A stretch of 64,000 nucleotides of DNA from an uncultured Methanobrevibacter sp. (GTDB lineage Archaea; Methanobacteriota; Methanobacteria; Methanobacteriales; Methanobacteriaceae): the NCBI RefSeq assembly GCF_902770715.1, contig NZ_CACXTS010000018.1, forward strand, positions 2,666 to 66,665, read 5' to 3'. Positions 1,839 to 1,854 of the stretch are shown piece by piece; position 1 is the stretch's first letter, and the number at the start of each line of letters is the position of its first letter. The position numbers and the translations under genes were made by a program. The notes beneath the pieces were generated by a model that saw only the letters and a list, made by a program, of their open reading frames with translations, had not been told where the DNA came from and searched no databases.

Positions 1839-1854
1839 TTTTGGTACACCTAAA
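1839..1854 (-). promoter_or_regulatory. Putative DtxR-family operator overlapping BRE of the dtxR-like gene
   Basis: Minus strand TTTAGGTGTACCAAAA, a near-palindrome just upstream of a TTTTTATA box; near-identical copies at 35551-35566 and 39442-39457. Confidence 0.55.

Follow-up and report, generated by a model that had tools for sequence, protein, structure and literature searches.

The window (the whole 64,000-nucleotide stretch analyzed here) carries three closely similar 16-mers on its minus strand, one upstream of a dtxR gene and two within a cysteine-centered cluster, all on one strand, with the order cysK-cysE-HTH-tRNACys-cysS-metY-nifS-nifU-dfx (Table 1). The original prediction placed each 16-mer 1 to 2 nt in front of a TATA-like box, and this was borne out by the sequence, the spacer being C at dtxR and CA at both metY and cysK. 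The genes named downstream of the three sites, a dtxR-family gene, cysK, and a metY-iscS-iscU-dfx block, also agree with the domain and family profile matches. For instance, the open reading frame (ORF) listed at 1067-1789 scored 69.6 bits with PF01325 and 97.5 bits with PF02742, in addition to a FeoA match. The GTG start listed for this frame, at 1789, falls inside an AGGTGA Shine-Dalgarno sequence, and therefore translation of dtxR probably begins with the ATG at 1780 (MAEDKISEN...). The end of a gene for a 1,320-aa secreted repeat protein (1923-5885, minus strand), adhesin-like with a transglutaminase-like C terminus and typical of host-associated methanogens, lies 69 nt upstream of the dtxR box.

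In the cysteine-centered cluster, the two cysteine blocks are separated by cysS and a tRNA-Cys (GCA) gene (37079-37149, minus strand), the latter lying between the HTH_3 gene and cysS. A T-rich, terminator-like stretch is found 3′ of the desulfoferrodoxin-domain gene. A scan with bacterial sigma-70 promoter and terminator patterns, which has no bearing on an archaeon, gave no more than chance would yield. The metY gene of this assembly has a 127-bp deletion at ∼35477-35484 compared to its congeners, by which the Shine-Dalgarno sequence, the start codon, and ∼36 codons are gone, and the deletion is flanked by a TTCA microhomology. The truncated gene would be either a pseudogene or the product of an assembly error; unless it is the latter, the promoter would mainly serve nifS-nifU-dfx in this strain. 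A metY paralogue, 60% identical, is present on contig C8 (55465-56616).

Table 1. Genes, promoter elements, and operator-like sites discussed in the text (positions are those of the window)
Feature	Position	Strand	Remarks
DtxR-box variant TTTAGGTGTACCAAAA	1839-1854	-	dtxR promoter; 3′ half doubles as BRE; PWM rank 22
TATA-like box TTTTTATA	1829-1836	-	dtxR promoter; read from sequence; TTTTT(T)ATAC in 18/18 congeners
dtxR	1067-1780	-	wHTH, metal-binding/dimerization, and FeoA/SH3-like domains; PF01325, PF02742, PF04023
Desulfoferrodoxin-domain (superoxide reductase-like) gene, dfx	32220-32585	-	PF01880; TIGR00332 domain
nifU/iscU, Fe-S scaffold	32641-33021	-	TIGR03419 above cutoff; PF01592
nifS/iscS, cysteine desulfurase	33015-34223	-	TIGR03402, 532.7 bits, above cutoff
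metY-like gene, O-acetylhomoserine sulfhydrylase family, 5′ truncated	34288-35480	-	PF01053
Near copy of ATAAC-N4-GTTAT, one mismatch	35498-35511	-	after metY TATA box
ATAAC-N4-GTTAT operator ATAACTATTGTTAT	35521-35534	-	just downstream of metY TATA box
TATA box TTTATATA	35541-35548	-	metY promoter (P2); invariant in 16 orthologous promoters
DtxR-box variant TTTAGGTATACCAAAA	35551-35566	-	metY-nifS-nifU-dfx promoter; PWM rank 17
Further ATAAC-N4-GTTAT copies of the metY promoter	35588-35601, 35608-35621	-	behind upstream TATA box at 35628-35635
Cys-rich HTH_3 (XRE-type) protein, 124 aa	37222-37596	-	PF01381; in cysK-cysE operon
cysK (cysteine synthase A)	38374-39321	-	TIGR01139, 443 bits, above cutoff
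Two adjacent ATAAC-N4-GTTAT operators	39388-39401, 39403-39416	-	downstream of cysK TATA box
TATA-like box TTTATAAA	2 nt (CA) after 16-mer	-	cysK promoter; read from sequence
Weak DtxR-box variant TTTAGTCATACCAAAA	39442-39457	-	cysK-cysE-HTH promoter; PWM rank 23

The 16-mer proved to be rare. Allowing at most one mismatch, TTTAGNNNTACCAAAA has 3 matches in the window compared to 0.31 expected, and 0 of 100 shuffles reached 3. When the whole genome was scanned (2.12 Mb, 34% G+C), the only exact matches were these same three sites. The original prediction had considered that the 16-mer might precede many unrelated promoters and be just an extended BRE. This was not found, and the extended BRE at many promoters was rejected as an explanation of the full 16-mer.

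The genome scan further uncovered a family of perfect palindromes, TTTAGG-N4-CCTAAA, the commonest form of which is TTTAGGCATACCTAAA, with ∼20 intergenic copies showing 0 or 1 mismatch genome-wide. Judged by crude longest-ORF calls, the genes behind these canonical boxes are feoB, feoA, an ABC ATPase gene, cbiM, two P-type ATPase genes, and an SBF-family transporter gene, that is, metal uptake and homeostasis genes before which a DtxR operator is expected to lie, together with a gene for a DUF4405/cytochrome-b-like protein. An extreme example is contig C22, an "iron island" where ten boxes surround feoB and feoA. The palindrome is the same as the motif found by ChIP-seq for TroR, a DtxR-family protein of Haloferax volcanii, which reads TTTAGGC-NNN-CCTAAAANAN, i.e., TTTAGGC-NNN-CCTAAA (PMC10783522); half-sites and spacing agree, and the boxes likewise stand at iron uptake promoters, often two at each. 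The gene behind the first of the three 16-mers encodes the only DtxR-family regulator of the genome. This makes it straightforward to assign the palindrome to that protein, though the assignment is one that we infer. A second DtxR paralog owning the CCAAAA variant was rejected, the two weak PF01325 hits being MarR-like and devoid of the DtxR dimerization domain.

Measured against the canonical palindrome, all three sites carry the change T13A (CCAAAA for CCTAAA), and the cysK site additionally has G6T. Their distal half-site is a perfect TTTAGG at dtxR and metY and TTTAGT at cysK, whereas the CCAAAA half is a 5/6 match in all three. In the genome-wide position weight matrix (PWM) scan that had been proposed as a check, the matrix was trained on 22 canonical intergenic sites with the three 16-mers left out. 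Among ∼4.2 million positions, the metY, dtxR, and cysK sites ranked 17 (20.5 bits), 22 (18.0 bits), and 23 (16.7 bits), respectively, and are the best noncanonical hits in the genome. All of the top 23 hits are intergenic, compared to an intergenic share of only 12% of the genome, and 21 sites of at least 16.5 bits are present where 0.51 would be expected in the 259 kb of intergenic DNA under a first-order Markov model. The claim that the 16-mers are DtxR-type operators of the TTAGG...CCTAA kind is supported insofar as they are one- or two-mismatch variants of the genome's own palindrome, and is weaker for the cysK site with its two mismatches (TTTAGT and CCAAAA). Read in this way, the three 16-mers are weakened copies of a predicted DtxR binding site fused to a TFB-recognition element, a reading that is supported for dtxR and metY-nifSU and uncertain for cysK.

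The A at position 13 is absent from all 22 training sites, and for this reason the affinity of the three sites for DtxR may be low or nil. Imperfect halves are also found within the canonical regulon. For instance, the proximal box of feoB, CTTTGGTATGCCTAAA, gives a CCAAAG half when the opposite strand is read, and the box of feoA, TTTAGTCATAACTAAA, is imperfect as well, both of these being undoubted regulon promoters. Boxes before the feoA, SBF, and DUF4405 genes also repeat the TTTAGTCATA half of the cysK site. About 2.8 kb past the right end of the window (contig C18, 69485-69562), there is one more CCAAAA-type box, the fourth, TTTAGGTGCACCAAAA, which shares the region between divergent genes for a P-type ATPase and a CPBP/Rce1-like protease with a perfect box, TTTAGGAATACCTAAA. 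Some perfect boxes outside the window, at C8:59412-59427, C22:11925-12011, and C35:2100-2183, are followed by good TATA boxes and have no ORF of at least 70 aa behind them. Some of these run into a convergent gene at its 3′ end, and they may drive iron-regulated small RNAs or antisense transcripts.

Phylogenetic footprinting, which had also been proposed, gave results that differed among the three promoters, but some trends were apparent. First, the dtxR box was preserved in almost all congeners. Orthologues of dtxR were taken from 18 congeners and, outside the genus, from 12 genomes belonging to two further genera of the order. Upstream of dtxR, the congeners show no conservation in the spacer save for an island, TTTAGG-nnnn-CCAAAAC-TTTTTTATAC, within which the box TTTAGG-N4-CC(A/C)AAAC is kept in the same register in 17 of 18, with unconserved flanks and a variable N4 (TGTA, TATA, TTTA, CATA, TTTT, TTAT, TTAA, or CTAT). 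This genus-wide footprint backs the earlier suggestion that dtxR is autoregulated. Second, at metY, the box TTTAGG-nnnn-(C/T)CAAAAC-ATTTATATA is retained by 13 of 16 congeners inside an otherwise unconserved spacer, and here too the middle varies. Third, the cysK box (TTTAGT..CCAAAAC) is kept only in the ∼9 closest congeners, whose CysK proteins are 90 to 95% identical and in which the entire cysK spacer is conserved. In the distant congeners, only CC(A/G)AAAC and the TATA box remain, and in one congener a separate TTTAGGCATCACTAAA lies at a greater distance upstream of cysK. This means that the proposed coregulation of cysK and the metY-iscS-iscU-dfx block by DtxR is backed for the metY block and uncertain for cysK, where the two mismatches come on top of the narrow conservation. 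Finally, of the 18 exact matches to TTTAGGNNNNCCAAAAC across 12 congeners, 15 are at dtxR or metY promoters; the other three are at a feoA promoter (congener G002), before a glutathione peroxidase-like gene, and in a coding sequence. TTTAGGNNNNCCAAAAC does not match more often per genome than a reversed control pattern does (18 versus ∼14 across the congeners), and the signal thus lies in placement, not in count.

At locus L105 of congener G004, a TTTAGGTATACCAAAAC box and then a TATA box precede a glutathione peroxidase-like gene. Together with dfx, this hints that oxidative stress genes join the regulon. In the two other genera (loci L022 to L033), the dtxR promoters are laid out differently, with ATTAGGTT(T/C)AACTAAA directly following the TATA box, and with the Shine-Dalgarno sequence and start codon covered by a palindrome-like TTTAGGTGAACCTAATG. 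Autoregulation of dtxR therefore seems to be older than the layout seen in the congeners.

The original prediction suspected that the 16-mer overlaps the BRE, and the comparison confirmed it: the CCAAAAC half by itself behaves as a BRE. The BRE half, ACCAAAAC, stays conserved even in promoters devoid of the TTTAG half. Every orthologous promoter, including each one at cysK, retains its BRE and TATA box, and ∼8 other promoters have CCAAAAC or CCGAAAC ahead of a TATA box with no TTTAG. Where the distal half is missing at cysK, CC(A/G)AAAC and the TATA box still persist, so that BRE function alone accounts for the proximal half, which must therefore also be the BRE. One may then ask whether the 16-mers are mere promoter sequence, a strong BRE (CCAAAAC) preceded by a T-rich stretch, with a fortuitous likeness to a DtxR box that DtxR does not bind. 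The BRE-like behavior just described would be explained in this way, as would a pattern count near that of the reversed control. However, two unrelated promoters hold TTTAGG genus-wide at a constant 4-nt spacing while the middle varies, the three sites are the best noncanonical PWM hits of the genome, one of them lies in the promoter of the regulator's own gene, and the same variant is found at a feoA promoter in a congener, all of which make a fortuitous likeness quite improbable. The canonical boxes are mostly in the same register, with CCTAAA(C), 0 to 3 nt, and then the TATA box (e.g., in the feoB, feoA, ABC, argG, and copA promoters). Overlap of operator and BRE is therefore a general design in this genome and not peculiar to the three sites. 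At the dtxR and metY promoters, A13 is invariant across the genus even though CCTAAAC serves as the BRE elsewhere, which suggests selection for either a weaker operator or a stronger BRE.

We consider it fairly probable that the three 16-mers are low-affinity operators of the single DtxR sensor and that metal-loaded DtxR occludes the BRE and represses. A metal-loaded DtxR dimer on the box would cover the BRE and compete with TFB/TBP. When iron is plentiful, dtxR itself (negative autoregulation), metY-nifS-nifU-dfx, and, less certainly, cysK-cysE would be turned down, and when iron is scarce, the same genes, cysK-cysE again less certainly, would be released. An Fe-S assembly operon based on a cysteine desulfurase would then be derepressed at low iron, much as suf is under Fur. 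As to the metal, alignments of the DtxR protein show the ligand motif H-x3-C-x2-E-H (segment HDQACEMEH), with Cys at the position of DtxR C102, where ScaR and SloR have Glu, and with Glu at the M10/D8 position. According to Guedon and Helmann (2003), the primary-site ligands of iron-type DtxR/IdeR proteins are reportedly Met10, Cys102, Glu105, and His106 (DtxR numbering). Because the ligand set here is mixed, the metal is not readable from the sequence; the feoAB targets point to Fe2+ as the probable one.

Since the box is on the upstream side of the promoter, binding of the same kind could also have the opposite sign. In that case, DtxR would recruit TFB to a weak BRE and activate nifS-nifU-dfx, cysK, and dtxR when iron is plentiful, following an iron-sparing logic like that of IdeR or TroR on storage genes. 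The boxes lie upstream of the TATA box and end at the BRE, a position that is used by archaeal activators such as Ptr2 and TFB-RF1. Moreover, NifS, NifU, and superoxide reductase consume iron, and the invariance of A13 hints at a special class of sites. TroR, for its part, activates dpsA (PMC10783522). Yet feoA and feoB, which are expected to be iron repressed, have the same box-to-TATA geometry (box, 2 to 3 nt, TATA box), and this shared register makes occlusion of the BRE, i.e., repression when iron is plentiful, the likeliest outcome. When Methanococcus voltae perceives iron limitation, its DtxR increases along with FeoAB (PMC8516115), which likewise fits autorepression of dtxR and not activation. 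We therefore regard activation as unlikely and repression as distinctly the better candidate for the sign of control.

Control of this kind, if it operates as predicted, has several relatives. E. coli Fur represses sufABCDSE. In Halobacterium salinarum, the SUF system (sufBCD) is regulated by the DtxR network (PMC10783522). As in both of these, an iron sensor is predicted here to act on an Fe-S cluster assembly system, but the system is a clostridial-type NifS/NifU pair accompanied by metY and a superoxide reductase-like gene, the host is a methanogen, and a second operator is present. The three sites also differ from those of TroR in that their proximal half is CCAAAA merged with the BRE, and in that they would act on the regulator's own gene and on cysteine/Fe-S genes, compared to siderophore genes for TroR; troR is reported to be constitutive, whereas dtxR appears to be autoregulated here. 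Regulons of archaeal FetR, MntR, and ZntR were reportedly predicted by Leyn and Rodionov (J Bacteriol 2015), with palindromic DtxR motifs before feoAB and metal transporters in many orders, and the palindromic box before feoAB and other metal transporters in this genome is of the same sort. MDR1 of Archaeoglobus fulgidus and DtxR of Pyrococcus furiosus are metal-dependent repressors of metal uptake operons, and MDR1 also represses its own operon. RNA polymerase is blocked at the MDR1 operators, which follow the TATA box, whereas the box described here overlaps the BRE. We know of no sulfur or Fe-S targets described for MDR1, P. furiosus DtxR, or M. voltae DtxR.

Coregulation of sulfur pathways by the DtxR/FeoAB system was named as an open question in the M. 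voltae study (PMC8516115). The operator type and the control of Fe-S assembly by an iron sensor are known from haloarchaea and bacteria, and the present case thus extends known biology without adding a new category. What appears to be new is the host genus, the targets (autoregulation and metY-nifS-nifU-dfx, possibly cysK), and a conserved weakened box fused to the BRE. The wider question is how methanogens coordinate their very high demands for iron and sulfur, and the sites provide concrete, conserved promoters at which one iron sensor would control both its own gene and a NifS/NifU operon.

A second palindrome, ATAAC-N4-GTTAT, which was absent from the original prediction, lies directly downstream of the TATA box in both cysteine promoters and is more strongly conserved there than the DtxR box. 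It has 14 exact copies genome-wide, all of them intergenic and five of them in the cysK and metY promoters. Additional sites of this type are at 38348-38361 and 35498-35511, with one mismatch. The palindrome is invariant across all 16 to 19 orthologous cysK and metY promoters, with AATAACTATTGTTATATA invariant in the metY promoters of the congeners and TGTTATATAACAATAGTTAT conserved in all 19 cysK promoters. Judging from these patterns, the main link between the cysK and metY promoters is this putative operator and not the DtxR box. Could the TTTAG...CCAAAAC likeness itself then be a matter of common descent, or of a common ATAAC-N4-GTTAT regulator, and belong to that promoter type with no part for DtxR? 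The two promoters do share ∼25 nt (TTTAG..ATACCAAAACATTTATA) in addition to the ATAAC-N4-GTTAT operators. Still, we regard this as very improbable, given that ATAAC-N4-GTTAT is missing from the dtxR promoter, which does carry the box, that the pdxS, larE-like, moaE, and nifB-like promoters have ATAAC-N4-GTTAT but no TTTAGG, and that congeners which have lost the TTTAG box at cysK still retain the one at metY.

The obvious candidate for the regulator acting at ATAAC-N4-GTTAT, judged from gene context, is the Cys-rich HTH_3 protein. It contains Cys5 and two CxxC pairs (CNIC and CQSC), has no NCBIfam match, and could be a metal- or Fe-S cluster-binding protein. Its gene accompanies cysK in 19 of 19 congeners and is missing, like cysK and metY themselves, from all 12 genomes of the other genera. 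Alongside the DtxR box, the cysK and metY promoters would then combine an iron input with a separate input, presumably related to sulfur or cysteine, through ATAAC-N4-GTTAT. More tentatively, and with more doubt than confidence, the cysteine/Fe-S promoters of the genus may be two-input switches, in which a weakened DtxR box on the BRE is joined to an ATAAC-N4-GTTAT site read by the Cys-rich XRE-type protein, sensing sulfide, cysteine, or Fe-S status via its CxxC pairs, and which would define a genus-specific regulon for cysteine-dependent sulfur mobilization. If so, this regulon would consist of cysK-cysE, metY-nifS-nifU-dfx, the larE-like PP-loop gene, moaE, and the nifB-like gene. We found no description of such a sulfur mobilization regulon or of ATAAC-N4-GTTAT. 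The second operator is a more original lead than the DtxR boxes, and with its candidate regulator it exposes a possible point at which gut and rumen-type methanogens control their cysteine metabolism.

The remaining copies of ATAAC-N4-GTTAT precede the larE-like PP-loop gene, moaE, the nifB-like radical SAM gene, pdxS, a GATase gene, and an MFS transporter gene. As a conserved member of the regulon, pdxS was rejected, the site being found only in the studied genome and one congener. An ATAAC-N4-GTTAT site is also found downstream of the perfect DtxR box on contig C22 that has no ORF of at least 70 aa behind it.
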